A DNA stretch of 64,000 bases. Source: an uncultured Pseudomonadales bacterium (lineage in GTDB: Bacteria; Patescibacteriota; Microgenomatia; UBA1400; MFAQ01). A program made the position numbers and the translations under genes. Positions 22,046 to 38,458 of the stretch are shown here, piece by piece. Numbering within the stretch: the first letter of the stretch is position 1; each line of letters begins with the position of its first letter. The DNA lies in contig CAZPFY010000001.1 of the NCBI GenBank assembly GCA_964586045.1, forward strand, positions 154 to 64,153. The letters run 5' to 3'. The notes below the pieces were generated by a model, which saw nothing but the letters and a program-made list of their open reading frames with translations, searched no databases and was not told the DNA's origin.

Positions 22046-25000
22046 TTATTTGGTTTGGACCAGCCAGAAATTGAATGAGATTTCGTCTTCTATTGGTTGC
22101 GGAATGGCGATGGTGAAGCCAACATGGCTTTGTTTGGATTTTACGAATAAGACTTGATTGTTGGTGTCGGAAATTGGGGTGATGTAAACCAAAGTATCAT
22201 CGTTTATTTTGGAACTATTTATAAAAATTTCGGAAGAACCTGTTGCAATAGAGGCGGTGCCAATGGTGGAGTTGGAGGATGTTTGACCGGAGATAGTGGA
22301 GTCTAAATTATTTCCGGAAGCGATGACTAATCCGTAAGTGGTAAGCTTGTCAAAGTTAGCTGAACCAGAAGCGTCGACAGAGCCGACAACGTTACCATCC
22401 TGATTGAAAAGTGCTAGGATTTTTGCTGAATCGGTAGCGAGTTCACCTTTACCGACAGCGAGGGTGCCAGAGACAGTAGCGGTACGAGTGTCGAGGTTGT
22501 TGGCAAAAATATTTCCCGTAACGATTAAGTCTCCATCTACTACAATTTGACCATTGGGGTAGAGGGTCATGAGATTTGCAAGTAAGTGGACTGGTTTGTC
22601 CCCGCTTGGTTGGATAAAAAGATCGGTGCCGAAGGAGCTAATAGATTGGCTGAAGATGGAGCCGTTAGCCAGGATGTCGTTTGTGGTCAAAACTTCGATG
22701 TTTAAATTTTTAAATGCCATGTCGGTTGGCAAAGAAGCTGATTCGGTTGCCAGAGATGAAAGCTGAAGGGGATCGTTGGTTGGATTTGTTTCACTATCCA
22801 GGGCGCTAAAAAGACTGTCGTATTGGGAATATTTTTCTTGAATAGAGGCAAAAATTGATGAGGCGGTGGAATATTTTTCGTTTAAAACGTCAAGTTGAGC
22901 TTTTAGTTTGTCGATGGTTTCACTCTTTATATTGTTAGCGTACAAAGTTCCTGAGACGGTGGCGATATTAACCTTTAGCTGATCGATGTCGGCGATTGGA
23001 GTTATTAGTTTTTGTTGAACAGTAAGATTGTCGATTAACAAATTCATAACAATGTTGGAGCCGAGCTTGAGATTGTTAATAATTTCGCTAGCAATTGATG
23101 ATGAGCTAGTTGCATGGTTCTGATTTAATTTTAAAGATATTTGATTGGTAAGAATCGTAATCTCTTCGTTATTGAAGCTTGAAGAAAGAGAAGCGATTTT
23201 GGCATCTAAGCCTTCTATTTGGTTGGCGTAAATTTTGTCTGCGGTGATTGTGTTGGTGACAATACTGTTTGTATTTAATTCGTCAAAATTACCTTGCTTG
23301 GCAAAAACGGTAGAGGCCTTGATTTGTCCTTCTACTATGAGTAGGGGTTGGGTGTTGTCGGAAAGTAAGTTGGGAGAAATGGTTATAGAAGCAGTAGAGG
23401 CCATGGGAGTAAGGAAACTGGTTTCGATGGTGGGAGAAACTAGCTGATTGGTAGAGATTGAACCGGTGATGACTTTGGCAAAAGAGCCAACGGTGTTTAC
23501 AAATCTGCCTGCAGTTTCGTCGAATAGTTCGTTGGTGTTGGAAATTAGGCGATAAACCCGACTGCTAAAAGTGGTTGGGTTGGGGGCGATACCATTGTTA
23601 ATGTGAATGAGAACAACGCCTTTGCCAATGTTGGGAATCCAGTCTTCAAAGGCGGTACCAATTACTTTGTCGTTTGGCATAGCTTTGGTGGCAAAACCAG
23701 GAAGAGGTGAAGAAGTGAGGCTGTCGCCAGCTTTGATATCTTGTGAGGAAGGATCAATTTTTACAGGTATTCTTCCTGCCAAACCAAGAAGTCGGCGGTT
23801 TTCGGCGGTGATTCCTAGCTCTTGTCCTGCTTTAGTGGAAATTGCACCGACTAAATATTGATCATTCGGAGAGCTTGTTTTGCGAAGAATTGGCACTCCA
23901 AACGGATCAGTTTTTCCCGTAATAGCGACTAAATCGCCGGCTTCAATACTTGGATCTTCGACGGTGTACCACTCAGCGAGATCAGCTCCGTAGACAACGG
24001 CGTCTAATCTGATTTGAATTGTTTCTCCGGTTTTGTTGTAAAGGCGGACGGTGTTCATGTCGGTCTGAACAATTTTGAAACCATTGCTCCAATCGAGCTG
24101 AACACTGCGGAGAGTGGGATGGTAGGCCGGATTGGTAGTAGTGAGGATGGCACGATATTGGAAGTATTCGTTGGGGGTAGAGCTTACTGTGGAGCCATCG
24201 GCATTTGTTAAGTATCTGTCGGCGGTAATATTGTCGACGTATAAAGTAGTGTTTGTTGAAGGAAGGGAGATGCGAAGTTTGGTAACCGCGTTGCGATTGG
24301 TCGTATTGATGTCGGTGAGATCCCAGTAGATTTTTTGCCAAGTGTTGGCGGCTTGGATGTAGAAAGTTTTTTCTTGTTCGGTGCCGGTGGATTCGCCAAA
24401 ACCAAATTTGACAAGATTGCCGGAGCTAGTGGCGTAGACCCAAGCAGTGAGGTAGTCGTAGTTGGTAAGGTCTTTGGCGGTAACTGTAGTTTCGGAATAA
24501 CCATTGGGGCTGCCGACTGAAGAAAACTTGGTCATGTTGCCAACGGTTGCCTCATCTTCATCTTCGAAATAGTCTACGTTGCGAGCTACGCCACCATCTG
24601 CTCTGGTTAAGTCAACCATACCCCAGAGAGTGTCGGTGTTCATATCTATGACGTCGAGTTTGTTGGTATTTGCCACGACTGGTTTCCAAGCTTCCCAGGT
24701 GCCATCTATAGAATTGGCAGATTTTCCAGAGCGAGTTTGGAGCTCTATCATGCCGTAAGTGTCGAGGTCGGCAAGCCACTTGATTTTGTTGTAGCCCGTC
24801 GAGTTTGGAGTTGGCATTTCTTCGGAGATGTACATGGAGTAGTTGTAGGATGGGGTTTGGGCGACGGCTGCGGCCGGGCTGGTCGTTCCCGTTAGGGTAG
24901 AGGCGTAGTAAATGGCTACCCTGCCATCTCCACCACTACCCCCTTCGAAATTGGAAAGACCCGCTATTTGTGCACCGCCATTGCTACTGACAAGGCTGGA

Positions 25001-28000
25001 ACCTAAACTTAGTGTATTTCCGAGAATTTTGATAGAGCCACCCGCACCTGCACCGCCTCCACCCTGGGTACTAGCAGCAGTGCCAGTAAGGCTATCGTCA
25101 CCTTTACTGAGAATTGAGCCCGAAACAGAAATAGTATCGCTATTGATAATGACTATGCCACCACCGCCTCCGCCCGCTAGTCCTGAGTAGTATGTACCGG
25201 TAGTGGCTTGACCAGCTCCACCACCGCCTCCGCCCGAACCCAGGTAGAGCTTGCCTAAGCTGGATTCCCCGTAATTACCAGCTCCACCACCACCACCACC
25301 ACCACCGAAACCACTACCCACACTTCCACCACTCGTACCGCTGCCACTTTGGTTGGTATCACCATTGCTAGCGATAGTTGGACCGGTTCCGCCACTTCCC
25401 CCAGCAGCGTAGCCACCCCCACCCCCACCTCCACCATAACCATTGTAGGAAGAGCCGTTGCTGCTCGCGCTTCCTGCACCACCACCACCTCCCGCCCCAG
25501 TAGTTGATGTTCCTACTCCACCAGTGCCGATACCATCCGTCAAATGTCTCCCTCCACCACCACCACCACTATAAACACCGTTTTGGCCTAGATTGTTGGG
25601 TGTTAATGGTGTGCCACCATCTCCGTCGACTCCAGATGTATAGAAAAGACTATGACCAGGGATGGATCTGGTGGTTGTACTTATTGCGCCGGTGCCACCG
25701 GGATATCCTTTGCCTGTAGCATTGATAGAGCCGGCGACAGAGACGGCGCTAATAGCCCGAAAAAAGAGGACACCACCTAAACCAGTTGTGTAGTCATAAG
25801 CGCTTGGGGAGAGGGTGGCACTAGAATCTACAGTGACGCTTGTGTAGTTGGGGACTCTTTGGAGCATAACTTTTTGATTGTTGACGCCGATGCCGAGATT
25901 GGTGTCGTCGCCTGCGCCGTCTCCATAGTACTTACCCTTACTAGTGGTAAAAGTGATTACGTTGCCGGCAAGACTACTAATTCTGAGGGTTTCGTAGTTG
26001 CCAACATTGACGATCGACCCTTGGGTTCCTTGTAGATTTATAAGTAGTATTTCGTCGCCTGTTTTAAGACAACTGGGTGTAGAGGGAATGGTGGAAAGCG
26101 TTGCCGTGGTTGAGGTGAGAGTGTTAACTGAGTAGTTGATAGCATCAGCACAGGTGCGGCCAACAATTGAGTCTGTGCTCAAGACTTTGGTGCCACTAGT
26201 AACCGTACCCGCACCATCGGCACCATTGCCTGGGTCATAGTCGCCAGCTTGGGTAACACCGGTGGCATTACTGGTAATACCGCTATTTGATAAAGCAGAC
26301 AAAGCGGTTTCGGAAACAGTGAGGTGAGAAGAAGAATAATAGTCGGTGGAATTAGCAAGGCGAATACTGCTGGCGTCGATGGTATGGGAAGCACCGTCGG
26401 AGTAGGTGAGTGAGATATTTGAAATACTGGGGGTGGCTTGGCCATTGGAGCTTGTGAGGATGAAGCGGTATTGGAAATAATTTTTGGGAGTAGAGGTGGG
26501 GGCGGTGCCAGAGGCGACAATGAGCTCTTCGGACTGTAAGCTGTCGACATAGACAGTTTGGTTTGGAGACAAGAGAGTGATTCTTAGCTTTGTAATTGCG
26601 TTTTTTGAAGCACTGGCAACATCACTGATGTCCCAATAAACTTTTTGCCAAGTACCAGTAGCGTCGATTTGAATTATTTCTTCTTGTTCGGTAGCAGCGG
26701 ATTCGCCGATGCCAAGTTTGATTTGTCCGGAAGCAGTAGCGTACACCCAAGCGGAGATAAGGTCGAAATTGGTAAGATCTGTACTAGTAATAGTGTCTTC
26801 GGCGTAACCATTTTCAGCTCCGACGGATCCAAGTTTAATACTTTTGTTTGCAGCATTGGTGATATCTTCGTCTTCGAAGTAATTGACGTTGCGAGCTAAG
26901 GTGCCATCGGCAACGGCATTTAAATTTGTAGCTGTCCAGTCGGCCGTTGCATCCATCGCATTTAGATTTTTGATATTCGTAGTGGTGACAACTGGTTTCC
27001 AAGCTTCCCAGCTACCATCAGTAGAGTCGGGGGTGTTGCCTGTTCTGGTTTGGGCTTCGACTTGGCCATAAGTATTTAGGGTTTCGGTGTAAGCAAAACT
27101 ATTTAAGTTAACGGCGCCGGTGGTGTTGATCTCCTTAGAGACGTAGATGCCATAGTAGCCAGACTGGTGAAGATATGGCGAGGTGGGGAAGTCTGGTTCC
27201 GAAGAGTTTGCAGTTAAAGTGTTTTTGTAAGAGACAGCGATACGGCCGACGCCACCAGTACCACCATCAACAGCTGTAGTGTCGCCAGCACCGCCTGCTG
27301 CAGTAATTAAGTCGGTGGTACTGGTGGTTACTGTGTCTGCCACAATTTTTACGGATCCTCCGGCACCACCACCACCCGATCCTGGATAGGTTGCTGTGGC
27401 GGCGGCGCTACCAGCGCCTCCATTACTTTGGATTCCGCCTGTGCTGGTAACCGAAAGAGTGGCGGCTGAGATCATGAGAATTCCACCACCTTTACCACCA
27501 GCACCTCCGTTGCTTGCAACGTATGTAGTAGTTCCCGTATCTCCGGCACCACCACCAGAGCCACCAGAGCCAAAATATGCTTTGTCTAAGTAGGTGTCAC
27601 CGTAGGTTCCACCACCACCACCACCACCAGCGTAAGCAGGGCCAGTGGTGGTGGTCCAGGCAGAAGTACCACCGTTTCCACTGGTTACCCCGCTTCCATT
27701 GACACCATCGCTAGTTGGAGTGTTGCCAGATTTTCCTCCATTTCCAATTGTTCCGTAACCACCACCAGCACCACCACCACCATACCCATAACCCGAAGCT
27801 CCGGTTGCGGCTCCGGCACTACCACCACCACCACCAGCGCCACCAATGGAAGAGCCGGCAATATTGGCATTGTAAAGAGTTGCGGCATTTACACCTCCAC
27901 CACCACCGCCACCACAGATACCGACTGAACCAACTGGATTATTGTCGTAATCTGCACCGCCACCGCCACCATTTGCGTTGCAGTATGACTCACCTCCATC

Positions 28001-31000
28001 GCTAGGATTGTTGCTTATTCCGCCCGTGCCACCGTTGTAGCCGGCAGAGTTTGTGTTGACAGTAGTTCCGGTGGGAACAGTTACGGTGCCGCTAGCGCGG
28101 AAGAACATAACACCACCTTTGGGAGCGGTCCAGACTGAGGCGGTAAAGTCAGTTCCGGCATTGGAGAGAGTAACGTCGGTGTAATTGGGAACACGTTGGA
28201 GCATGACACGTTGATTGGTGGTGGCGGTACCAAGATTGGTGTCGTTGCCTGGATCATCGCCGTAGGTTTTATTTTTGGCTGTTGTAAAAGTAATGGTTGA
28301 GGTAGAGACAGAAGCAATTCTTAAAGTTTCGTAGTTGCCAACATTTAAATATTTTGTAGAAGTACCCTGAAGATTGATAAGAAGGACTTCATCGCCGGCG
28401 GATAAACAGCCGGTGGATGGGGTAGTGGAAAGGGTAGCAGTCGTGGGAGTGAGAGCGGTTACTGAATAATTGACAGCGTCTCCACCATCGGCGCAAGAGC
28501 GACCAGTAATCGAATTGGCGGTATTGATGTTGGTGTCAGTAGTGATAGCGATGGCACCATCAGAACCGGTACCATAAACATAAGTGCTACTGAGGGCAAT
28601 ATTGGTAGTTTTGAGTTTGTTGGTTGATGACGAAGTGGTATTTACCATAGCCAGATCCTGGTTGGTGGTTGTAGTCCAGTCAGAGATTTTTTTCCAAAGT
28701 GAAGTCACTGTATCGTAGAACCAACCGGTAAGAGAAAGGTCATTTGTGTTTTGATTGTGAGCAATTTCAACGTAACCACCACTTAAAGTTGCCGATTGAG
28801 TGGAGTAAGCGGTCATATCCATGGCAAGGCGGTGCCAGACAGAGTCTTGGCCATACATGAAGAGACTGCCGGTGTTGCCAATGGTGTGAACGTTGTTTAG
28901 ATTTCCAGAAATGGTGGCGCTGTTGTAGTAAATAGATCCAGCAACGCCGGTGGGGATAGCGGTTAAACTTTGGAGGGTAATAGTGCCGGAGTCATTGATG
29001 CGGAATTCGTCGCCACCAGTTGAATTCGTATTAAATGAGAGATACGTAGTTCCAGCGTCACTGATTGTTGATGAGCCAATTAAAGCTGTACCGGTAGTAC
29101 CATTACCAATTGTCAAGGCTGGGTTGGCGGTACCATCTATGGTTAGGGTACTAGAAATTTTAGCGTCTCCATTGACATAAAATTCCATATTGGATGGCAT
29201 CGAATTGGTTGAATCTCCAACTCTTAGATTACTAGTTACATTCCATTGGGTCCCTGCGGTTCCTGTAAGTTGGCGATTGGCAATACTAATTTGTTCGACA
29301 CCCAAGTGGTTGTTGATACCTTGGCTTAGAAATAGATTTTTCCAAGCTGTGCCACTAATGCCCAAAGTTGTTTCATCGTTTGCTCCTGGAACCAGATCGC
29401 CACTGTTTAGGATTTTAAGAAAAGTTAATAAGCCAGCATCACCACCCTGAGAAGTGGCAAAAGATAAATCAGCTCCGTTGAGAACGTTAATGGTTGGACT
29501 TGCTCCTCGGAAAGTAAGAGATCCTGAAGTGGAAGCATCTCCGGCTACATCAAGTTTTGAGGTTGGGGTGGTTGTACCTATTCCAATGTTGCCGGTGCCA
29601 TTGGGGTTGAGGAGAATGTTACCGGTGGTATTGTAGGTGCTGGAATTTCCGAGAGTTAAAGTTTGGCGGCGGGTTGTTCCCAAAGTTCCATTGCCGGTGA
29701 GGTAGGTTGTTCCGGCGATACTGGCAACTGGGGTGCCAAGATTGTTGTTTAGAAAAGAAAAGTTGGCACTGAGTGTTGACTGGCCACCGACGAGTAAATC
29801 AAGGGTAGAGTTTTTGGGGTAGATGGCCCCGTTGCTTGAAAGCCAATTTTCGGCAATGTTTTGGTTAGTTATTTCAGTGTCGAGATCTTTGAGGACGCCT
29901 TGAACAGTGAGAGAGTTGCTGTTTGAAAATTCATCGAAAACACCGATTAAGTAAGCACCACTGTCGTTGTTGGCAGTAGATTCGGCAAGGGTGGTGGTGC
30001 CACCAAAGATTAAATTGGCGGCGGAATTGATTTGAAGGCTGCTGGTATTGGATATGTATACGTTGCCTCCTGCGGACTGAAGGCTGAGGTTGCCAGCCAC
30101 ATCGCTAATGGAGTGGGCAACGCCATTGATCATGTTAATGGCGCCAAGATTACTAATATTAAATTTGGTGATACCAGAGGCTGAAGCACTGAAGAGTGAT
30201 CCTGTGCCGTTTTGATTTACAGTGAGTGCTGAAGTAACAGCAGAACCGGTTGCGGTATTGATGCTAGTACGGCCATCTGCTAAAACCCAAAACTTTGCAG
30301 ATTCAGTTGCCCCGGAAGAAAGTAGAATGAGTTTGCCGCTACCGGTGGCGATATCATTACCAATATATCCTGACAATAGAGAACCAGTTGTCAAATTTGC
30401 ATTTGTAGTTCTAAAAGTGTCTTCGGTAGTAGTGCCGCCAATTGCTAAAATTTGGCCGGACCCAATAGCGTCTGGTTGAATAACAATGTCTCCACCAGAA
30501 TTGGTGGCTGTTGTTAAAGAAATACTTTGGCCCTTGAGATTAAAATTTCCTGATGTTGAAACGATGGATGGTGAACTGGCGGCGATATTAAGATTGCCGG
30601 AGTTGTCAATTACGGGGACAGTGTTGATAGTTGCAGATGCTGACGCAGGATACCCCTGGAGGGTTTCGGAATTGAGGGCGTAGCCGACGGTGGCAATCTG
30701 TTGTCTGGGGGTAAGGGTTTCGGCGCCGACAGTAACTGCTAGGTAAACATCGCGATTATCACTAAAGACAGATTGGGGAATTTCACTGCCACAAACGCTG
30801 TCGCCTATGAGACTGTTAAAAACACCGTCGGAGTCCGGGGTAACAGAACAAGTACCGGTGGTATATAGTTGGCTGCCGGCGGTAAGATGATTCCAAAGTT
30901 TGAAATTGACATTGACGGCAGTGTTAATTGGAGTTCCAGATGAATCGGAGAGTCTGCCCTGGAAAGAAAGTTGTCTGCGGGGGGCGGTTAGAGAGGTGGC

Positions 31001-31891
31001 GGCTGAGCTGGGTTTGGCTTGTTTGATGATTTGGTTGTAGCCCAAAATGCCCATGGTGGTGGTAGCGATTACAAGCAAGGCGAGATGGAAGTAGGGAGTA
31101 AAAGGAAGGGCATTGTACTTGTGGTAAAAAACTGCCAAACGGCTTTTGGAGGGATTCTGAGGGTTTTTGGGTTTGGGAATAAGGCGATTGAGCCAGGCTA
31201 AGGGAGTAATTTTGGCTTCGGTTACGGTAATTTCAAAAGGATCCTTGGGAATTAGACTGCGGTTAAAACAAAAGTGAGTAAGCTTTTTAATAGATGATTG
31301 TCGTCTGCTGATAACAGAAGAGCTGGCGCGGGTTAGTTTTAGATAAGCAATGTAACTAGCTAATTGTTCGGTACTTAAAACTTGTTCGAGGTGGCTAGCG
31401 TTAAAAGGAGTTTGATTGGCAATCCAAGAAAAATAGTGATAAAGATCTGAAAGATAGTTTTTGACGGTAGAATGAGTTTTCTTTTCGTTTATTAATTGTT
31501 GTTTGAATTGTTCAAGAATTTTTTTGCTTGAAAGGTCCTTATTGTTGTTTGCATTGTTTGATGTATTTGGAGTTGGTTCGGATAAAGTTTCTATTTTGGT
31601 GATTTGATACTTGATGTTTAAGAAATTGGATAGTCTTCTGATGGAAGCAAGTCTGCGATTGGTGGTTGCGGGTGGTGTGAGAGTAGAGGATTGTTCCTGA
31701 CTGTATTTGCTGATGTATATTGATAGGTTTTGAAATACTTCGGTAAGATTAAACTGCTTTTGAGATTCCAAAAAGCGAAGAAAGTGCCTAACATCACTAA
31801 GGTAGTTTTTTATGGAAACAGCTGAAAGCCCAGACTCAATAAGAAATGAAGTGAAGAGCTTTAGGATTTCGGTATTGTTGGGCAGGTTCAT
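22046..31891 (-). CDS. giant (3281 aa) surface protein: two tandem integrase core-binding-like N-terminal domains, TM anchor, Gly-rich beta-helix-like regions, internal ~750-aa tandem duplication, C-terminal fibre-like region
   Basis: Uninterrupted 9.8-kb ORF. The two core-binding-like motifs are SIKNYLSDVRHFLRFL and TVKNYLSDLYHYFSWI. The TM is FHLALLVIATTTMGILGY. There are long GGGGG/GGAGG tracts and duplicated modules (ETLRIASVSTSTITFTT... / ETLRISSLAGNVITFTT..., and YFEDEDITN... / YFEDEDEATV...). Confidence 0.85.
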   Translation of the reverse strand: MNLPNNTEILKLFTSFLIESGLSAVSIKNYLSDVRHFLRFLESQKQFNLTEVFQNLSIYISKYSQEQSSTLTPPATTNRRLASIRRLSNFLNIKYQITKIETLSEPTPNTSNNANNNKDLSSKKILEQFKQQLINEKKTHSTVKNYLSDLYHYFSWIANQTPFNASHLEQVLSTEQLASYIAYLKLTRASSSVISRRQSSIKKLTHFCFNRSLIPKDPFEITVTEAKITPLAWLNRLIPKPKNPQNPSKSRLAVFYHKYNALPFTPYFHLALLVIATTTMGILGYNQIIKQAKPSSAATSLTAPRRQLSFQGRLSDSSGTPINTAVNVNFKLWNHLTAGSQLYTTGTCSVTPDSDGVFNSLIGDSVCGSEIPQSVFSDNRDVYLAVTVGAETLTPRQQIATVGYALNSETLQGYPASASATINTVPVIDNSGNLNIAASSPSIVSTSGNFNLKGQSISLTTATNSGGDIVIQPDAIGSGQILAIGGTTTEDTFRTTNANLTTGSLLSGYIGNDIATGSGKLILLSSGATESAKFWVLADGRTSINTATGSAVTSALTVNQNGTGSLFSASASGITKFNISNLGAINMINGVAHSISDVAGNLSLQSAGGNVYISNTSSLQINSAANLIFGGTTTLAESTANNDSGAYLIGVFDEFSNSNSLTVQGVLKDLDTEITNQNIAENWLSSNGAIYPKNSTLDLLVGGQSTLSANFSFLNNNLGTPVASIAGTTYLTGNGTLGTTRRQTLTLGNSSTYNTTGNILLNPNGTGNIGIGTTTPTSKLDVAGDASTSGSLTFRGASPTINVLNGADLSFATSQGGDAGLLTFLKILNSGDLVPGANDETTLGISGTAWKNLFLSQGINNHLGVEQISIANRQLTGTAGTQWNVTSNLRVGDSTNSMPSNMEFYVNGDAKISSTLTIDGTANPALTIGNGTTGTALIGSSTISDAGTTYLSFNTNSTGGDEFRINDSGTITLQSLTAIPTGVAGSIYYNSATISGNLNNVHTIGNTGSLFMYGQDSVWHRLAMDMTAYSTQSATLSGGYVEIAHNQNTNDLSLTGWFYDTVTSLWKKISDWTTTTNQDLAMVNTTSSSTNKLKTTNIALSSTYVYGTGSDGAIAITTDTNINTANSITGRSCADGGDAVNYSVTALTPTTATLSTTPSTGCLSAGDEVLLINLQGTSTKYLNVGNYETLRIASVSTSTITFTTAKNKTYGDDPGNDTNLGTATTNQRVMLQRVPNYTDVTLSNAGTDFTASVWTAPKGGVMFFRASGTVTVPTGTTVNTNSAGYNGGTGGISNNPSDGGESYCNANGGGGGADYDNNPVGSVGICGGGGGGGVNAATLYNANIAGSSIGGAGGGGGSAGAATGASGYGYGGGGAGGGYGTIGNGGKSGNTPTSDGVNGSGVTSGNGGTSAWTTTTGPAYAGGGGGGGTYGDTYLDKAYFGSGGSGGGAGDTGTTTYVASNGGAGGKGGGILMISAATLSVTSTGGIQSNGGAGSAAATATYPGSGGGGAGGSVKIVADTVTTSTTDLITAAGGAGDTTAVDGGTGGVGRIAVSYKNTLTANSSEPDFPTSPYLHQSGYYGIYVSKEINTTGAVNLNSFAYTETLNTYGQVEAQTRTGNTPDSTDGSWEAWKPVVTTTNIKNLNAMDATADWTATNLNAVADGTLARNVNYFEDEDITNAANKSIKLGSVGAENGYAEDTITSTDLTNFDLISAWVYATASGQIKLGIGESAATEQEEIIQIDATGTWQKVYWDISDVASASKNAITKLRITLLSPNQTVYVDSLQSEELIVASGTAPTSTPKNYFQYRFILTSSNGQATPSISNISLTYSDGASHTIDASSIRLANSTDYYSSSHLTVSETALSALSNSGITSNATGVTQAGDYDPGNGADGAGTVTSGTKVLSTDSIVGRTCADAINYSVNTLTSTTATLSTIPSTPSCLKTGDEILLINLQGTQGSIVNVGNYETLRISSLAGNVITFTTSKGKYYGDGAGDDTNLGIGVNNQKVMLQRVPNYTSVTVDSSATLSPSAYDYTTGLGGVLFFRAISAVSVAGSINATGKGYPGGTGAISTTTRSIPGHSLFYTSGVDGDGGTPLTPNNLGQNGVYSGGGGGGRHLTDGIGTGGVGTSTTGAGGGGGAGSASSNGSSYNGYGGGGGGGGYAAGGSGGTGPTIASNGDTNQSGSGTSGGSVGSGFGGGGGGGGAGNYGESSLGKLYLGSGGGGGGAGQATTGTYYSGLAGGGGGGIVIINSDTISVSGSILSKGDDSLTGTAASTQGGGGAGAGGSIKILGNTLSLGSSLVSSNGGAQIAGLSNFEGGSGGDGRVAIYYASTLTGTTSPAAAVAQTPSYNYSMYISEEMPTPNSTGYNKIKWLADLDTYGMIELQTRSGKSANSIDGTWEAWKPVVANTNKLDVIDMNTDTLWGMVDLTRADGGVARNVDYFEDEDEATVGNMTKFSSVGSPNGYSETTVTAKDLTNYDYLTAWVYATSSGNLVKFGFGESTGTEQEKTFYIQAANTWQKIYWDLTDINTTNRNAVTKLRISLPSTNTTLYVDNITADRYLTNADGSTVSSTPNEYFQYRAILTTTNPAYHPTLRSVQLDWSNGFKIVQTDMNTVRLYNKTGETIQIRLDAVVYGADLAEWYTVEDPSIEAGDLVAITGKTDPFGVPILRKTSSPNDQYLVGAISTKAGQELGITAENRRLLGLAGRIPVKIDPSSQDIKAGDSLTSSPLPGFATKAMPNDKVIGTAFEDWIPNIGKGVVLIHINNGIAPNPTTFSSRVYRLISNTNELFDETAGRFVNTVGSFAKVITGSISTNQLVSPTIETSFLTPMASTASITISPNLLSDNTQPLLIVEGQIKASTVFAKQGNFDELNTNSIVTNTITADKIYANQIEGLDAKIASLSSSFNNEEITILTNQISLKLNQNHATSSSSIASEIINNLKLGSNIVMNLLIDNLTVQQKLITPIADIDQLKVNIATVSGTLYANNIKSETIDKLKAQLDVLNEKYSTASSIFASIQEKYSQYDSLFSALDSETNPTNDPLQLSSLATESASLPTDMAFKNLNIEVLTTNDILANGSIFSQSISSFGTDLFIQPSGDKPVHLLANLMTLYPNGQIVVDGDLIVTGNIFANNLDTRTATVSGTLAVGKGELATDSAKILALFNQDGNVVGSVDASGSANFDKLTTYGLVIASGNNLDSTISGQTSSNSTIGTASIATGSSEIFINSSKINDDTLVYITPISDTNNQVLFVKSKQSHVGFTIAIPQPIEDEISFNFWLVQTK
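24000..28550. repeat. approximately 2.3-kb tandem duplication (two copies) within the second giant gene, including Gly-codon (GGN) rich tracts
   Basis: Two homologous ~750-aa protein modules with matching order of motifs. The plus strand shows CCACCACC runs at about 25.0-25.7 kb and 27.3-28.0 kb. The boundaries are approximate. Confidence 0.55.
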
Positions 31892-32471
31892 GAACAGACT
31901 ACGCTTTTAAGAGGCTATTAAAATTAAAAATAAAATAGGAATGACAAAAATTGTTCCTGCGGTAATTAATTCGAGATAGAGAGCCTTGTTGGAAGTACTA
32001 CTGCTTAAAAAGTCTTGTTGGGAGTAGTCGTTTATTAACATGATTTTTTGATTGTTGATAACTTGTCTTTAGGTTCAGATTAGACGATATTAGACGGTTA
32101 TATATTAACTATAAAATAGATTATTTCTGATGTCAATGGCTAGACCAAATATTGTTCTTTAGTTGATTGTTAAGTTTGTGCGTAAATTATTTTTAAAAGG
32201 AGAGGTAAGAGGAATTTGTTTATTTTATCGACGCATTAGATTGCGTTAATAAATATTTTCATGCGTTTAATGAAGCTAAAATAGACTAAATATACGCGGA
32301 AATACTGTTTATGCTTATGACTGCTGTGAAAATATTCAATGATATCTTTTGATTCGTATAGATATCAATTGATAGACAATGATTTCCTTAGGCATTACAG
32401 CTTACAAAATACACTCTGATTTTTTTGGATATTGACTGGTCCTTGTTGGTTCGGGAAGATTAATCTTTTGC

Positions 32472-34145
32472 TTAGGATTTGCTACCTAGTTTAGGGTAAA
32501 TGTATTCGGAAAAGGTGTATTGAAGCGAGAGGTAGAAGTAGACAAGGAGATAGCTGTTTGGAAAGAAGTATAGGCCAATAGAGGAACTGACTATCGCAGT
32601 AATGAGAGGAATTAGTTTGATGGAGTAGAAGTAACCTTGAAGCTCTTCTTTTGCCCCTAAAAACCTTTTGGGAGATGGTGATAGACAGACATCATTTAAG
32701 ATATTGCTGGGTAGAATTTGATTTTTCCAGGTATATCCTGTTTTCTTTAAAGTGATAAAAGATTTGTTTGGTAGACGGGAAGGAAAGAAAATATTTCCCT
32801 TAATGTCACTTACAGTGCGATATACTTTTTTATTTAATTTGTCTGGGTTATACAGTTCGATAAAAGTAAATGGTGTTGTTGAGACGCTTTTTCTTTTTAA
32901 GAAAGGAAACCCGAGCGTAAAGATAAAGCTAAGAAAATTACTCAAGTTTGCGTTAACTGCGATGCTTGTAATAACGAGATGTATAGGTAGGCCGAGACAG
33001 AGGAAGAAGAGAAGGATGTAAATACCACCATTGAGACCTTTCTTTTGAGAAATTATTTTTTGTGGTGGTAGGGAAGGGGCTGGTGGGGTTTTGGCTAGAT
33101 AAGGAGTGGGGGTTATGAGAGTAGAGAGCTCTGAGGGTGGTTTAAGGGTTTCGGTTACGGGCAATAACTCTCCTGAGTCCGTAGCAGTGTTTTCAAGATA
33201 TGGATTGTAGCCCTCTGGGAGTGTTTCTGGTTCTACGAGAATATAATCACTCTGTGATTCTTGGGCGGGTGCTTCGGGAATATATGTTGGAGTAATGGTC
33301 AGTAAACTTGTTGGTTCTAGAGATGGTCCTGGTTCACCTGGTGTTGAGGTGTACAGCAGGTAAAATGGGGGGAATATTGTGGAGTTGCTTGTGGCATCAG
33401 TTGCCGAGAGTTGAATGGTGTATGTAACCCCTGGAATTAGGTTCATAAACTGCTTTTCCCAGTTTCCGTCTGTGGAGTTTGTAATCCATGATTGAGTAAC
33501 GCATTCCGAAGGAGCATTTGTGGGACAAATAAGACTTACCTGAAGATTGGAGTTAGCTTCTACTTTGCCACCAATTAAAGCATTTTCGGTATCAACAAAG
33601 AGATATCTGTTTGGTTCATCTGGTATTGTGGTGGGATTGGTAGTGTCCCAGTTGTATTCAGTTTGGTTGACCTTAGTAAGAGAGATAAAGGGGGAAATGG
33701 TGTCGATATAAAAGTTCCAATTCCCTGTGGTTGCGTTTTGTCCGACGTTGTCGTATACAGCAACTTTCCAGGTATGATAACCCTCCGATGGACTTTGCTT
33801 TAGGGTTACGTAGAAGTAATTTCCTGATGAACTAGCGGTATAAAAATAATAGTCTTGAAAAACAATAGAGTCGGATATTGAGGCCGCAAAAACTACGTTG
33901 TCTATATATAAATCATAGTGGTGTAAATTTAGAGGGTTGGGGGTTGGTCTGAGCCAGATGAATTTAATTAGGCCACTGTTTGTAGCGAAGTTGTTTGGTG
34001 GGGCTACAAGGCTGGGGGGGTAGAAATTGGTGGAGGCGACGCTGGCAGAGACCTTAGAATTGCTACTTGTAGGGTTGGCGGCGTTGGCAAAGTTAACCTT
34101 TAGAAAAATTATGACTAATAGGGCGGCGATAATTTTTCGACCCAT
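32472..34145 (-). CDS. secreted/membrane-anchored surface protein (signal peptide, Ig/fn3-like N-region, Pro/Thr-rich linker, C-terminal TM segments)
   Basis: 557 aa. Signal MGRKIIAALLVIIFLKVNFANA, a beta-rich region, a PTP-rich linker, and hydrophobic helices at about aa 370-400 and 510-545. Confidence 0.55.
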   Translation of the reverse strand: MGRKIIAALLVIIFLKVNFANAANPTSSNSKVSASVASTNFYPPSLVAPPNNFATNSGLIKFIWLRPTPNPLNLHHYDLYIDNVVFAASISDSIVFQDYYFYTASSSGNYFYVTLKQSPSEGYHTWKVAVYDNVGQNATTGNWNFYIDTISPFISLTKVNQTEYNWDTTNPTTIPDEPNRYLFVDTENALIGGKVEANSNLQVSLICPTNAPSECVTQSWITNSTDGNWEKQFMNLIPGVTYTIQLSATDATSNSTIFPPFYLLYTSTPGEPGPSLEPTSLLTITPTYIPEAPAQESQSDYILVEPETLPEGYNPYLENTATDSGELLPVTETLKPPSELSTLITPTPYLAKTPPAPSLPPQKIISQKKGLNGGIYILLFFLCLGLPIHLVITSIAVNANLSNFLSFIFTLGFPFLKRKSVSTTPFTFIELYNPDKLNKKVYRTVSDIKGNIFFPSRLPNKSFITLKKTGYTWKNQILPSNILNDVCLSPSPKRFLGAKEELQGYFYSIKLIPLITAIVSSSIGLYFFPNSYLLVYFYLSLQYTFSEYIYPKLGSKS

Positions 34146-34150
34146 GAGTG

Positions 34151-35110
34151 TTATTTCCTTTCCAAGATATGGATTTCCTTTTGAAGTTCTCGAACTTCTT
34201 TTTCGAGTTCGTCTTGGTGCCTTTTGCTGCGTTTGTTAAGCAAGATGATGACTGTTAGAGCTGAGATTAGGGCTACAAGTGAGTAAATGACTAGACGGAT
34301 TGGAAAAAGCCAAAAGAAAATTGTTGCGCTCAAGACACTGTCTTGACTGCCGTAGATAAGATTGAGTTCTGCTTTGTATTTTCCATAACCCCATTTTTGA
34401 TTCCAGGCGGCGGAAATGAGCTTGGTATTGTCCGGGAAAATGTTTCCGAGGTCCAAAGGAATTCTGGATACTTCTTTGTTAAATAAATCGGTAATGGTTA
34501 TTGATCCTTTTGGTTGAATATGAATATCAGAAGTATTTTCGATGGTTCCTGTAAACTCGATTGGTCCTTTTTCGGTGAATTTTGGAGAAGTAAAAGAGGT
34601 GATTGTTGCTTTTTCGTTTATTTTTCCTTTTATGGTGAGATAAATTAGACTACCAACTCGTTGACCGATGATGGTAGCTGTTTTTTTTAGTTCCCCTGGT
34701 TTTATTTCGGCGTTGGGCATGTAAGTTACCATGGCATAATGACCACCTGGCAATGCAGAGTGTGGTACTCGAATAATGATTTCGATGTTTTGAGTGGCTT
34801 TTGAGTCGACAGGAATGAGCTTGGGAGCACTGATCCATTTGCGAAGCGACCATTTACTGGTGATGTTTTCGGAAATTGGAATTGGGGTGCCACTAAGATC
34901 ATCTACGATAAAATCATTTACAAAAACAGTATAGTTTTGTGAGATTTCGGAGTCGTTTCTGACTTTTAGGGTAGCTCTTATAGTTTCGCCCGGCTTGGCT
35001 TCGATTTGAAGTCGGGGTGGAATGGCGGTGATGGTTGATTCGGCAAAAGTTGGAGTGGAAAATAAAAATAAAAAGAGAGAAAAAATTAAGATGAGATTTA
35101 TTTTTTTCAT
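34151..35110 (-). CDS. DUF916/DUF3324-like cell-surface protein (signal peptide, beta-sandwich, C-terminal TM and charged tail)
   Basis: 319 aa. Signal peptide, then PPRLQIEAKPGETIRATLKVRNDSEISQNYTVFV, as in the DUF916 N-region. C-terminal TM FFWLFPIRLVIYSLVALISALTVIILL followed by a KRSKRHQDELEKE tail. Paralogous to 36567..37559. Confidence 0.5.
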   Translation of the reverse strand: MKKINLILIFSLFLFLFSTPTFAESTITAIPPRLQIEAKPGETIRATLKVRNDSEISQNYTVFVNDFIVDDLSGTPIPISENITSKWSLRKWISAPKLIPVDSKATQNIEIIIRVPHSALPGGHYAMVTYMPNAEIKPGELKKTATIIGQRVGSLIYLTIKGKINEKATITSFTSPKFTEKGPIEFTGTIENTSDIHIQPKGSITITDLFNKEVSRIPLDLGNIFPDNTKLISAAWNQKWGYGKYKAELNLIYGSQDSVLSATIFFWLFPIRLVIYSLVALISALTVIILLNKRSKRHQDELEKEVRELQKEIHILERK

Positions 35111-36538
35111 TTAGAAAGAGGCTGTGGCAGTATAAGTAATTTGGTTTTCGTAGTCTCCAGCGGCTTGAGTAGCGTCGACGGTAACACGGTAACAAACGTT
35201 GGCGGTGTTGCTATTGGCTACTGTGGTGTTTGACATAATGGTGGCAACTAGAGGAGCATCTGGATCTGCGACGGAGGGGAATTTGCGTGCGTTGAAAGCT
35301 GCACCAGAAGAGGTAAAGGGAACCGTAGCTCCAGAAACGGATTTGAGGGTGTAGCCAAAGCCAGGATGGGCAGTAGCGGTGTCCCAAGTGTCGGAAACTG
35401 TTTCGCTGGCTGTTCCAGCGTCTCCTGTAGTGTCGGGAATAAATGGAGTGGTACCGCCATTTTTACCAAGTTGATCGTTTTCTTGGGCGGTTACAATGTA
35501 GCCGTTAGAGGCGTTGGTGGAAACAGTGAGGAGGTGGGCTGCATCCTTGAAGGTATTTAAAGCTAAGGTGCCAAAAGGGACGGCCAGGGGAGCATTTGTG
35601 CCAGTTGTAGTGTCGACGTCTGTTTGGTTTGTAACGCCTGTGCCACACGGGTTGGCACCTGAAGCTACTCCTGCAATAGTAAAGGTGATAGTTGGATCGA
35701 CTGTAGCGGTGACTCTGACTGATTCGATAACAGCGACTTTGCCACTACTGCTGTCAATTTCGGTATCAACATCGTCGTAGTTTTTTACTTGAAAAGTATA
35801 AGTATCAGCTGTTGCTTGAGTGTGTCCAGTGGCAGGAGCTGGGGCTATTGGGGTGTTGGCTCCACTGCCAATAGTGATAGTGATAGGGGTGGAGACGCCA
35901 CCAGCGCCAGAATAATGGACTTCAAAACAGTGGTAGTTGGCTGGGGAAGTACAACCTGTCCCACCTGATGTGGTTGCAACGCCAGCAACAAAGGTGTATC
36001 CGGTTGTATCGGTGCCTGATACGGTAACCGTTCCGCCACCAAAATCAAAACCGTCGTCGTCTGGGCTTCCGTCGTTTGGGGTCGTAGCGTCAGCGGGTAA
36101 AAGAACGCGAAAATAACCATTGGCGACCGCCGAGGCGGTGTTGAAAGTTACGACATGTTGAGGTTTTGATTTTAAATATACCGGGTCGTTATCGTCTGTA
36201 TCTCCGGCGGCTAAAACTGGAGAAACGGAAAATTCACTGGAGTTTAATATACCGACAACAGTGTAGGAGCCTGTGCCGATGGTAAGGCTGTCGCCGATTC
36301 GAAGATTGGCGGTTGAAATGGTATTTGCCGGGGCAGAAGCAACGGTTTTGATCATAACGTTCGAGCTTCCGGTAAAAGTACCTGAAGAATCGACGCGGGC
36401 ATTAATGGAAATTCTGGAGGATTGAAGGGTATCTTTGACGACGGTAAGGTTGGATGAGTCTGTTTCGATAGGGTTTGATACAAAAAAGATTATTGAAAGA
36501 CCAAGGAAAAATGGCAAAAACTTCTTTTTTGTGGACAC
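35111..36538 (-). CDS. secreted beta-rich surface protein (WxL-like candidate), paralog of 37561..38430
   Basis: 475 aa. Signal peptide, Thr/Gly/Ala-rich beta-strand composition, and a C-terminal tail TQAAGDYENQITYTATASF that aligns with SQTAGTYQNGIQYLAIPAF of the paralog. The W..D..GFGY motif is shared. Confidence 0.5.
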   Translation of the reverse strand: MSTKKKFLPFFLGLSIIFFVSNPIETDSSNLTVVKDTLQSSRISINARVDSSGTFTGSSNVMIKTVASAPANTISTANLRIGDSLTIGTGSYTVVGILNSSEFSVSPVLAAGDTDDNDPVYLKSKPQHVVTFNTASAVANGYFRVLLPADATTPNDGSPDDDGFDFGGGTVTVSGTDTTGYTFVAGVATTSGGTGCTSPANYHCFEVHYSGAGGVSTPITITIGSGANTPIAPAPATGHTQATADTYTFQVKNYDDVDTEIDSSSGKVAVIESVRVTATVDPTITFTIAGVASGANPCGTGVTNQTDVDTTTGTNAPLAVPFGTLALNTFKDAAHLLTVSTNASNGYIVTAQENDQLGKNGGTTPFIPDTTGDAGTASETVSDTWDTATAHPGFGYTLKSVSGATVPFTSSGAAFNARKFPSVADPDAPLVATIMSNTTVANSNTANVCYRVTVDATQAAGDYENQITYTATASF

Positions 36539-36566
36539 TATATATTTAGATTACTACACTATCGCT

Positions 36567-37559
36567 TTAATTATCAACTACCTGATTTTTGTTTGTAACT
36601 TTAGATATAATTTTCAGTAGGACGAAAGATATAAAAATGGTGGCACCAGATTTGAATGGGAAGAAAAAGATATCAATAGAATTGCTGGTATTTGTGTTTT
36701 CTGATTTGACGTTAAAGCTAAGTGTATGCAAGCCAACTATTCTTAGCGTTGGAGAAAAGAAAAAGGGTTTTTCGTTGGAAGAGATAAGTGTTCGAGAAGA
36801 CTTGGAAATGACATATTGAGGAAGTATACCTTGAAGAAAAAGAACCTCGGAGTTTTTTTTGTTAGTTAATTTAAAGGTACCTTTGGTTTCGGTTAGGGAT
36901 GGTCCCTCGTTGGTAGCGATTGCGGTTACAGTAATGGGGGTAAGGTTGTCAGCATAATAGCGACGACCAATTTTGACAAAACTACCCGAAGTGATGGTTA
37001 TTTTTTCAATTTTTAAAATGGTGTTGGGATTTATTTCTGGAGTTATAGAAATAAGAAGATTGGCGCCAATTGAGGAACCAATACTAATATTTTTTTGATC
37101 TCCGCTTATTGAGTTATCGTAGGTTGAGAATAGTAAGGTGGTGTAAAGATCTTCGGCATTAGCGGTTTCGGGTACAGAAAGGCTGACCACTATTTGTTGC
37201 TTATTTTTGGCTTTTAGTAAAAATGGTTCGTCAAACTTTATTTCTGAGTTGGAGAGGTTGAAGTATTTTAACCAGGAAGCACTTGCTTTGATGTCAATGG
37301 TGGGATTGCCATTGTTGTCAGCTTTGTTGAAGGGGATGACTCTAACAACAAGATATTTGTCAGTGTTTTCGATGTTTTCAATAGTAAAACTTTTGGTAAT
37401 TGATTTACCAGGTTTTATTTGAACTCGAACAAGGGGTGGATCGAGAGAGAGGCCGACTGGCGAGGCTTGTGTGGGAGTAGCAACTGCGAATAAACAAAAT
37501 ATTATTACGATGCCTGACTTGACTAGTAATTTAGCAAATAAAATATTTTTCGTCTTCAT
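36567..37559 (-). CDS. DUF916/DUF3324-like cell-surface protein (second copy)
   Basis: 330 aa. Signal peptide, then PPLVRVQIKPGKSITKSFTIENIENTDKYLVVRVIPF, similar to the 34151..35110 N-region. C-terminal TM ATIFISFVLLKIISKV. Confidence 0.5.
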   Translation of the reverse strand: MKTKNILFAKLLVKSGIVIIFCLFAVATPTQASPVGLSLDPPLVRVQIKPGKSITKSFTIENIENTDKYLVVRVIPFNKADNNGNPTIDIKASASWLKYFNLSNSEIKFDEPFLLKAKNKQQIVVSLSVPETANAEDLYTTLLFSTYDNSISGDQKNISIGSSIGANLLISITPEINPNTILKIEKITITSGSFVKIGRRYYADNLTPITVTAIATNEGPSLTETKGTFKLTNKKNSEVLFLQGILPQYVISKSSRTLISSNEKPFFFSPTLRIVGLHTLSFNVKSENTNTSNSIDIFFFPFKSGATIFISFVLLKIISKVTNKNQVVDN

Positions 37560-37560
37560 A

Positions 37561-38430
37561 TTAAAAGGCTGGGATGGCTAAATACTGAATTCCGTTTTGG
37601 TAAGTTCCTGCTGTTTGCGATCCGGAAATGTTTAGTTTGTAAGTGACAATAGCACTGGAGTCTGTGGCTGTGGCTGAAGCTCTGGTCATTACTGTACTGG
37701 GTTGGTCAGTTCCTTGAATGGGGAAGGGGCGGAAATAAGTTGTGTTGACAAAATCTGTATCTGCGTTGGTGCCGGTTGCATTATAGCCAAAGCCGTAACG
37801 AGTATCGTCTGTCCAGGGCGTAGCGTCGGTGATAGTGCAAGGGGTGGCAAGATTGCAGCTGGTGTCGGGAATTGTAGTTGAGCCGTTGGTTAGTCTTAGG
37901 GGGTGATCTTGAATTACTTTGACGTTGAAACCGTATGAGCTGCCGGTGGATACAGTAAGAACATTTGTAAGGGTGCTTGGGGTCCCGGGGACTAAAGTGC
38001 CGTAGCTCAGGTCAATGTCAGAGATGGTAAAGGTGAAGGGAATGGAGTTGGCGAGATATTGAAAGCCGGCTTTTATGGTATAGCCACTTGAGTTAAATTC
38101 GCCTTGAGCTGTTTGCCCCACAGTGTCATTTAGTTTGTACGACGTGGAACTTTTTGATCCTCCCGTAATATTAATAGTTCCCATTTTTATTTCAAAACCT
38201 GGGGAAGAGAGGTTGTCAGCGAAAGTTGATGATGGAAAAAAAACGATAAAAACAAACACTGCAATAGTAATTACTACAAGACTATTTTTATTAAAAAAAG
38301 TCTTAAATAAGGCTAAATGGTGGCTATTTGGAGTGCCATCAGCCGTGGAGTGTGTCTTTCTGATGTATTTTGATAAGCTAATCATTTTTACTTTGATATA
38401 TTTCGTGTTTGTGCCTGGTGGGGTATACAT
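37561..38430 (-). CDS. secreted beta-rich surface protein (WxL-like candidate), paralog of 35111..36538
   Basis: 289-aa ORF. The real start may be the internal Met (MISLSKY, about 38385). Signal anchor LVVITIAVFVFIVFFPSSTFA. LTVSTGSSYGFNVKV aligns with LTVSTNASNGYIVTA of the paralog. The C-terminus is YLAIPAF. Confidence 0.5.
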   Translation of the reverse strand: MYTPPGTNTKYIKVKMISLSKYIRKTHSTADGTPNSHHLALFKTFFNKNSLVVITIAVFVFIVFFPSSTFADNLSSPGFEIKMGTINITGGSKSSTSYKLNDTVGQTAQGEFNSSGYTIKAGFQYLANSIPFTFTISDIDLSYGTLVPGTPSTLTNVLTVSTGSSYGFNVKVIQDHPLRLTNGSTTIPDTSCNLATPCTITDATPWTDDTRYGFGYNATGTNADTDFVNTTYFRPFPIQGTDQPSTVMTRASATATDSSAIVTYKLNISGSQTAGTYQNGIQYLAIPAF

Positions 38431-38458
38431 AACCCGAAGAGATTAACAATTATTTTAT

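Follow-up and report, generated by a model that had tools for sequence, protein, structure and literature searches.

Why does a giant surface fibre begin with the DNA-binding-type domains of a recombinase, and what could these domains do there? The question is raised by one gene on a 64,000-nucleotide (nt) stretch of contig CAZPFY010000001.1, here called the window, which was deposited as DNA of an uncultured Pseudomonadales bacterium. The original prediction, made from the letters alone, held that the product of this gene opens with two tandem integrase core-binding-like domains and continues through a single transmembrane (TM) helix into about 3000 amino acids (aa) of Gly-rich or beta-rich sequence. 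Our comparisons show a predicted type-II (N-in, C-out) membrane-anchored surface fibre of a Collierbacteria-like Microgenomates bacterium. Tentatively, we take its core-binding (CB) module for a tether or autoregulator that binds nucleic acid in the cytoplasm, at the base of a fibre for host contact, a reading to which we give somewhat less than an even chance.

Tandem core-binding domains without a recombinase

The gene and the N-terminal parts of its protein are as follows.

22046..31891, minus strand: giant fibre gene, 3,281 aa from ATG (open reading frame (ORF) list and translation)
31607..31876, minus strand: CB1, first core-binding (SAM-like) domain, aa 6-95 (PF02899 and AlphaFold2 (AF2))
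31262..31528, minus strand: CB2, second core-binding domain, aa 122-210 (PF02899 and AF2)
31091..31261, minus strand: basic juxtamembrane segment, aa 211-267, conserved in the alignment
31037..31090, minus strand: TM helix (signal anchor), aa 268-285, FHLALLVIATTTMGILGY, an uncharged hydrophobic run within AF2 helix 265-292

The translation gives the order two CB domains, TM helix and a fibre that resembles the mosaic adhesive trimer (MAT) fibres of Bdellovibrio. Positions 31000-31891 encode aa 1-297, and the two peptides quoted in the original prediction were located at aa 11-42 and aa 126-157. An identical protein (P0019) is present in public collections, where it is nameless.

When aa 1-123 were scanned alone, Phage_int_SAM_1 (PF02899) matched aa 11-91 with 36.0 bits (E=8.6e-09). 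When aa 118-264 were scanned alone, the same family matched aa 126-208 with 32.0 bits (E=1.6e-07). The gathering score of PF02899 is 22.3, and CB1 and CB2 each score above it; as sequence matches, both are far beyond chance. The AF2 model of aa 1-300 (mean predicted local distance difference test (pLDDT) 83.1) contains two helical bundles, with helices at 6-19, 24-42, 49-69 and 74-95 in CB1 and at 122-135, 140-157, 165-186 and 191-210 in CB2. Residues 103-118 form a disordered linker, and the long helix 265-292 holds the TM segment. Each repeat is thus, independently of the other, a member of Phage_int_SAM_1 by both threshold and helical-bundle fold, and the two tandem domains of the original prediction stand, as does the single TM helix with 2,995 aa after it.

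In structural comparison the module matched XerD (score 12.4), the integrase N-domain 3nrw (12.3; 2.1 Å over 97 residues), XerA (11.2), IntI4 (11.1) and the lambda Int core-binding domain (2oxo; 10.9; 2.3 Å over 93 residues). Foldseek was concordant, and its top superpositions included the integron integrase IntI4 with a root-mean-square deviation (rmsd) of 2.3 Å. By sequence, the module alone gave no meaningful match among PDB chains. The family profile gave one, to a recombinase-like chain (9i5v chain 14, 401 aa). The deposited name of this chain, 'Ribosome-associated translation inhibitor RaiA', looks doubtful, since its residues 1-120 align in the manner of a recombinase core-binding domain.

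No match to the catalytic domain PF00589 (active site R-K-H-R-H/W-Y) was found over the 3,281 aa at E<=0.01, and the SAM-like domains are the sole Pfam families across the whole protein. The NCBIfam models of XerD and XerC match only at positions 2-92 of 290-295, with 57.7 and 49 bits against equivalog cut-offs of 330 and 335. Since the catalytic domain is missing, the giant protein is judged not to be a recombinase and to be unable to recombine DNA. JGI/IMG calls relatives of 4,633 aa and 6,041 aa "site-specific recombinase XerD". Because the catalytic domain is missing and the XerD/XerC models are matched at the N-terminal ~90 positions only, this name is, on our reading of the sequences, an annotation error caused by the CB module. 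Compared with tyrosine recombinases (XerC/XerD, lambda Int, Cre, IntI), the core-binding (SAM-like) N-terminal domain is in common. In contrast, the giant protein has this domain in tandem, has neither catalytic domain nor active-site residues, and continues with TM helix and fibre; its family further adds an invariant KNYxSD motif and, in many genomes, a split of CB2.

Residues 1-266 of the 267-aa module that precedes the TM helix have an isoelectric point (pI) of 9.9 and a net charge of +17, to which the juxtamembrane residues 213-266 (pI 10.0) contribute +5. The 2,995 aa after the TM helix are rich in Gly, Ser and Thr and acidic (pI 4.5). The same contrast is found across the family, with a median pI of 9.4-9.6 for the module and 4.5 for the ectodomain. 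The giant protein has no signal peptide, and the 267-aa cytoplasmic CB module stands where a cleavable one would be expected. It is the charge contrast, the lack of a signal peptide and the position of a MAT_N-like domain after the TM helix that argue for the N-in/C-out topology. Independent confirmation that the module is cytoplasmic comes from genomes in which part of it is split off as a small protein with neither TM helix nor signal peptide (see below).

Conservation and distribution of the module

Relatives were sought among 1.84 billion representative proteins with a profile built from the N-terminal 300 aa. Clustered at 50% identity, the matches form 340 clusters (E<=1e-30) or 1,339 (E<=1e-10). 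The matching proteins are 140-6,048 aa long, and the match nearly always begins at residue 1. The top 141 representatives include 58 long relatives (at least 600 aa), and a TM helix follows the module in 55 of them, at median residue 278. A relative is encoded on 201 stretches of GTDB species genomes. The module is carried by about 200 GTDB species, essentially all Microgenomates (named carriers: Collier-, Woese-, Levy-, Shapiro-, Roizman- and Gottesmanbacteria and "Patescibacteria group"). As the original prediction had asked, homologous giant genes do keep the N-terminal module. Many third-party-annotation (TPA) metagenome-assembled genomes with this Microgenomates-specific locus (L003, L004, L008, L012 and others) are titled 'uncultured Pseudomonadales' or 'uncultured Gammaproteobacteria'. 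These proteobacterial titles are almost certainly wrong.

Residue conservation was computed on the same 141 representatives, which are mutually <=50% identical. The polar residues of helices B and D are 82-97% conserved, and the KNYxSD motif is common to CB1 and CB2. The best-kept residues are these.

CB1: K28 82%, N29 94%, Y30 97%, D33 97%, R79 96%, R85 87%
CB2: T142 93%, K144 88%, N145 93%, Y146 96%, D149 96%

In Cre and XerD, it is with helices B and D that the core-binding domain enters the major groove of DNA. High conservation in the family alignment extends to the juxtamembrane and TM residues, and the start codon and N-terminal sequence are conserved among relatives. We read the CB module as a part of the protein that is under selection and no accident.

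A tandem repeat in the leader of the giant gene

Upstream of the giant ATG lie a promoter, a repeat and a small ORF.

32108..32136, minus strand: sigma-70-type promoter, TTGACA-17 nt-TATAGT, consensus at 11 of 12 positions
32079..32096, minus strand: tandem direct repeat CGTCTAAT-AT-CGTCTAAT (=CGTCTAATATCGTCTAAT), at about +6 to +23, in 10-bp register
31907..32041, minus strand: 44-aa ORF (MLINDYSQQ...; TM helix at its C-terminal end), its end 15 nt upstream of the giant ATG

TTGAC is invariant across the 21 loci that were aligned, and behind the tandem repeat CGTCTAATATCGTCTAAT come two conserved boxes, TGAACCTAAA and AGTTATCAACA. The 18-mer occurs once in the window, where 0.01 matches would be expected even at 3 mismatches. 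It is found unchanged in 18 loci whose flanking proteins share just 40-60% identity. More distant lineages have 2-3 tandem units of GTATAAT or GTCTAAT (GTMTAAT) at the equivalent place. When the motif was generalised accordingly and both strands of 1.07 Mb of loci were scanned, it occurred 58 times; 56 occurrences lie <=420 nt upstream of a CB ORF on the same strand, and the remaining two adjoin a CB ORF. A scan of the whole metagenome collection for the 18-mer gave 60 matches. A CB module lies 190-290 nt downstream of 39 of these, and one further match has the same promoter context and is cut by the contig end. The other 20 were taken as chance matches (microsatellites, unrelated GC content, no promoter context). 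This distribution shows the tandem repeat to be a putative cis-element dedicated to the giant CB gene.

Each repeat unit agrees with the -10 consensus in 5-6 of 6 bases; the units carry a TG extension in many lineages and lie in the initially transcribed region. The 44-aa ORF has tblastn matches in 18 loci, and similar small ORFs (MKIIDFS..., MIKYSQNY...) occur in distant lineages. Its product could be a membrane partner of the fibre TM helix, or a leader peptide.

Natural split of the second core-binding domain

In about 29 of 80 fetched related loci a short CB ORF of 150-190 aa without a TM helix is present. In about 18 loci the first gene stops just past helix B of CB2, and a second gene opens at helix C and runs through the TM helix into the fibre. 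The split thus yields a soluble protein of ~165 aa and a giant protein; neither TM helix nor signal peptide was found in the small CB protein. The start of the second gene projects to about residue 165 of the window protein, which places the split site at aa 158-165, in the helix B/C loop of CB2. The arrangement is seen on the complete Woesebacteria chromosome CP066686.1 (L058). Here, a 170-aa protein consists of CB1 and helices A/B of CB2, with ...TVKNYVSDVRQFLSWLEANQKNLNA as its last residues. A gap of 15 nt separates its gene from that of a 2,271-aa protein, which opens with helices C/D of CB2 (...ATAKRKIVSLRKFLDWAKGKGLI) and carries, in this order, the TM helix, a MAT_N-like domain, the fibre and the same C-terminus as in the window protein.

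The two genes share a frame in only about 8 of the 18 split loci, all three stop codons occur, and the gaps range from -59 to +310 nt. These mixed frames, stops and gap lengths point to true gene fission. They rule out read-through or frameshifting, and the second gene has its own ATG. An intron at the split site was also ruled out: the two ORFs supply every residue of the domain, and several gaps are just 0-15 nt. Both halves have been retained across many lineages, which implies that the predicted CB halves reassemble in trans. If they do, the function would require that CB1 be physically joined to the cytoplasmic tail of the giant protein.

The separate SAM and giant ORFs of a Collierbacteria relative (L001/L002) are not a real split, since a ~50-bp tandem duplication within the gene creates the stop.

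Between the small CB gene, whose stop codon it follows directly, and the giant gene, a structured RNA-like element of about 75-110 nt was seen in L041, L045-L047, L049, L051-L053, L059, L062, L069 and L072 (for example L053:10476-10544 and L046:10498-10582). Its outer stem covaries (GCGGGCC/GGCCCGC, GCAGGCC/GGCCTGC, GGTGGACC/GGTCCACC), its inner hairpin has a conserved GGGGGGA loop, and its 3' tail reads UUGAUUAUA. Neither the window, whose CB gene is fused, nor the split loci with gaps of 0-15 nt contain the element. An Rfam search with it matched no family. Its MAFFT alignment was not structurally consistent, and a strict pattern scan recovered 4 of the 12 copies. In L053, L061, L068, L059 and L062 an extra ORF is inserted between the CB halves, right behind the RNA-like element. 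The inserted product is a four-helix bundle (S23/IVS-like) in some loci and, judged by eye from its sequence, NYN-type-nuclease-like in others. These insertions suggest that the split site may serve as a landing place for small mobile or regulatory cassettes.

A MAT-like base, a variable middle and a conserved tip

Two parts of the ectodomain could be assigned.

30797..31000, minus strand: membrane-proximal domain, aa 298-365, homologous to the Bdellovibrio MAT-fibre N-domain
22055..22267, minus strand: C-terminal beta-sandwich tip, aa ~3209-3279 (versus P0015, BLASTP E=7e-16)

Residues 298-365 match NCBIfam NF053851 (Bdello_MAT_N) with E=1.4e-09 and 38 bits, below the cut-off of 60; the alignment spans profile positions 7-75 of 162. 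The same profile is matched at the equivalent place by 42 of 45 family members at E<0.01. By sequence, this domain is homologous to MAT_N, yet it falls outside the family by the NCBI cut-off.

The middle of the protein (aa ~1000-2650) contains segments of about 30% glycine and is found in only 3-5 related loci, so we regard it as hypervariable. The final ~170 aa are conserved in 26 loci. A mini-homologue of 492 aa (P0015) consists of two CB domains, a TM helix and the conserved C-terminus, and nothing more. The AF2 model of the C-terminal 201 aa has a mean pLDDT of 55, and that of the last ~70 aa alone reaches ~76-83. This ~70-aa tip is modelled as a beta-sandwich whose best Foldseek matches are C-terminal domains of phage tailspikes and tail fibres (Pam1, Sf6, R2 pyocin). 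Profile matches and models together show a predicted resemblance of the ectodomain to phage tail fibres and to the Bdellovibrio MAT fibre.

In Bdellovibrio MAT fibres, a beta-rich N-domain follows the signal peptide and is thought to be adjacent to the cell surface (PMC10769870). The giant protein is like MAT and phage tail fibres in having a conserved MAT_N-like domain directly after the export signal and a long variable distal part (PMC10769870). Its predicted beta-sandwich tip, modelled with confidence over ~70 aa, resembles those of non-S74 MATs and of tailspikes (PMC10769870), and contact with another cell is presumed for both. However, MAT proteins have a cleaved signal peptide and about 1,000 aa, whereas the giant protein has 3,281 aa (relatives up to 6,048) with an N-terminal TM helix and a CB module. 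Unlike in MAT fibres, it is the C-terminal tip that is conserved in the giant-fibre family and the middle that varies.

The giant genes of L001/L002 (Collierbacteria LCKO01000010 and JGI Ga0209518_1000514) contain matches to the intein/Hint families PF14890, PF01079 and PF07591. These matches are absent from the giant protein of the window.

What the core-binding module may do

In the reading that we tentatively favour, the CB pair would retain its ancestral nucleic-acid binding and would tie nucleic acid to the membrane anchor of the fibre. As candidate target, the tandem GTMTAAT repeat of the gene's leader is the most plausible: one helical turn separates its two near-identical direct repeats, and the two KNYxSD helices that would meet them are near-identical as well. 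This could result in a ToxR-like, membrane-tethered autoregulation. Alternatively, the module could act as a transertion anchor that keeps the 10-kb gene at the membrane for as long as its product is being exported. Where the gene is split, the soluble protein of CB1 and half of CB2 would dock by completing CB2, which would make the link reversible.

Regulators of the ToxR/TcpP/CadC type bind direct repeats near promoters. The predicted topology of the giant protein is the same as theirs, with an N-terminal cytoplasmic domain of DNA-binding type, a single TM helix and an extracytoplasmic part. In these regulators, however, the DNA-binding part is an OmpR-type winged helix and the sensor a small periplasmic one, whereas the giant protein has a CB pair and a giant fibre, and a regulatory role for it is putative. 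Another comparison is with MrpR (YopR, SPbeta) and SroF (phi3T). These are soluble master repressors of phage with an integrase fold, which keep an inactive catalytic-type domain and act at prophage promoters. In contrast, the giant protein has CB domains only, these are tethered through the membrane to a fibre, and their DNA binding is putative.

Several points weigh against nucleic-acid binding, which we infer for the CB pair. With nearly always two CB domains but one to three repeats, the counts cannot tell the models apart, and since almost every member has both motif and module, presence and absence are uninformative as well. An isolated CB domain normally requires the catalytic domain to clamp DNA. 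MrpR and SroF retain that second domain, which the giant protein lacks. The -10-like repeats (TCTAAT, or TGTATAAT elsewhere) could act through sigma-70 pausing, another regulator or an RNA leader, without the CB module taking any part. Finally, a basic pI is common in cytoplasmic proteins of small AT-rich genomes.

Less likely, in our estimate, but a serious possibility is that the CB pair has lost nucleic-acid binding and is now a cytoplasmic module for protein-protein contacts. As such it could join the three N-termini of the fibre, recruit a chaperone or export factor for the 3,000-aa passenger, or hold a cytoplasmic partner. The natural split speaks for this role, as it shows CB2 serving as a two-piece protein interface, and so does the lack of the catalytic domain for the C-clamp that gives recombinases their DNA affinity. 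The highly conserved juxtamembrane and TM residues also suggest specific packing. However, the module is strongly basic family-wide, and its best-conserved polar residues are on the helices B and D that contact DNA in Cre and XerD. The conserved operon offers no candidate cytoplasmic partner, all other products having a signal peptide or a TM helix, and a docking role leaves the dedicated tandem-repeat element unexplained.

We consider it rather unlikely that the fibre, beyond serving as an adhesin, is itself a signalling device. In such a device, the CB pair or the detachable small CB protein would bind the GTMTAAT operator of its own promoter, and host contact or tension would alter the binding or free the small protein. 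This would be a bacterial relay from contact to transcription of the Notch/ToxR kind, made out of a domesticated DNA-binding domain of recombinases and maybe coordinated with the adjacent DNA-uptake genes.

A general DNA tether is more doubtful still. Here, the module would bind the nucleoid or DNA imported by ComEC non-specifically and couple the fibre to the competence machinery. The divergent comEA and comEC genes do lie beside the operon in 34 and 27 loci, distant lineages included; DprA and ComM are encoded in the window, a pilin-like gene follows the giant gene, and the module is basic. IntI4, at 2.3 Å rmsd, is among the best Foldseek superpositions, and this enzyme binds folded single strands. 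However, nothing ties the module to single-stranded DNA, and gene order in streamlined genomes need not imply joint function. The competence genes are on the opposite strand with a promoter region of their own. The invariant polar residues and the dedicated cis-element would suit specific recognition better.

It is improbable that the repeats have nothing to do with the CB module. They would then act in promoter-proximal sigma-70 pausing or in loading of an antiterminator required for transcription of a 10-kb gene, and the module would be a domesticated remnant with no role other than that of a cytoplasmic plug for the signal-anchor. The -10-like, often TG-extended units in the initially transcribed region would fit this, and Rho is encoded in the window, which suggests that long genes may need protection from termination. 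A plug alone, however, would not hold 82-97% identity of polar residues across 141 clusters that are <=50% identical, nor would it persist as two complementing halves.

There is practically no chance that the gene is a mis-assembled or mis-called fusion with a truncated integrase gene and truly starts past the TM helix, an artefact that the separate ORFs of L001/L002 might suggest and that the comparative data refute: the break there is the ~50-bp duplication inside the gene, the fused ORF recurs in dozens of independent assemblies with start codon and N-terminus conserved, and the promoter is upstream of the unit of small ORF and giant gene. A start downstream of the TM helix, which the original prediction had named as the result that would overturn it, is excluded by this conserved start, promoter and leader, and the giant genes of the split variants still begin with half of CB2.

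Full-text literature searches found no prior description of this architecture, and neither Pfam nor NCBIfam has a dedicated family for giant CB-anchored fibres. The building blocks are known; the combination (tandem CB domains alone, giant fibre, split and cis-element) is without a described counterpart. Bacteria of the candidate phyla radiation (CPR), the Microgenomates among them, are uncultured and have tiny genomes; attachment to other cells is their presumed way of life, and most of their giant genes lack annotation. The clade-wide fibre family defined here, with its MAT-like base, variable shaft, recombinase-derived module, split form and cis-element, bears on how these bacteria sense and hold hosts. 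Should the module bind the cis-element, recombinase core-binding domains would for the first time be seen to work alone as a membrane-tethered regulator, and a surface fibre would be tied directly to gene expression. The analysis also corrects a systematic misannotation, that of proteins of 4,600-6,000 aa called XerD. As markers, the 18-nt leader and KNYxSD motif can help to find further such loci.

Genomic neighbourhood

The giant gene is the last gene of a same-strand cluster of surface-protein genes that is conserved by synteny in 27-52 related loci. The neighbours are listed here.

32472..39199, minus strand: upstream surface-protein genes (translations and synteny)
38459-39199, minus strand: cluster product of 246 aa, a polytopic membrane protein with a charged coiled C-terminal part
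39459-40058, plus strand: comEA (Pfam SLBB and HHH_3), divergent from the cluster
40060-41178 and 41474-42253, plus strand: comEC, two ORFs (Pfam Competence and Lactamase_B)
21375..22016, minus strand: 213-aa pilin/pseudopilin-like gene, directly downstream of the giant gene

The 246-aa gene is the first of the operon and is kept in 38 loci, always beside the divergent comEA; its product matched no family. The products of 289 aa and 475 aa are secreted beta-rich paralogues. Those of 330 aa and 319 aa are also paralogues, with a signal peptide, a C-terminal TM helix and a WxLIP/DUF916-like character. The WxL-interacting-protein domain PF06030 is matched by 32 of 47 family members (best E=2.4e-07), and by the window protein alone at E=0.082. 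A product of 557 aa has a Big_13 domain and C-terminal TM helices. No WxL domain was found among 47 members of the 289/475-aa family at E<=1, and no LPXTG protein was seen.

WxL/Csc clusters of Firmicutes have a layout of small-WxL, large-WxL and DUF916 proteins (PMC10599100). The operon is alike in its two DUF916/WxLIP-like proteins, each with signal peptide and C-terminal TM helix, and in its small and large secreted paralogues (PMC10599100). In contrast to those clusters, no WxL domain was detected and no LPXTG protein seen, and the Firmicute clusters are without a giant CB-anchored fibre. Judged from the domains, the resemblance is partial.

The original prediction had pointed to competence genes nearby, and their linkage is conserved: comEA adjoins the operon in 34 related loci and the two parts of comEC in 27 and 24, with distant lineages included. 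DprA, ComM and Rho are also encoded within the window. In comEC, the ORF with the Competence domain is followed by a 295-nt gap and the metallo-beta-lactamase ORF, and a 100-aa ORF lies between them on the opposite strand. The N-terminus of the 213-aa protein matches TIGR01710 (GspG, E=6.6e-06) and Pfam N_methyl (E=0.023), and synteny of its gene extends to 10 close relatives.

A second giant ORF of 3,445 aa lies at 9271-19608 (minus strand) and starts with GTG. It has a signal-anchor-like N-terminal helix and a Pro/Thr-rich linker. This ORF showed no SAM module, no Pfam match and no similarity to the first giant protein, and it has weak relatives in only 2 close loci. In L002, toxin-antitoxin-like nucleotidyltransferase (NTase) genes and an AAA gene are inserted in the upstream operon.

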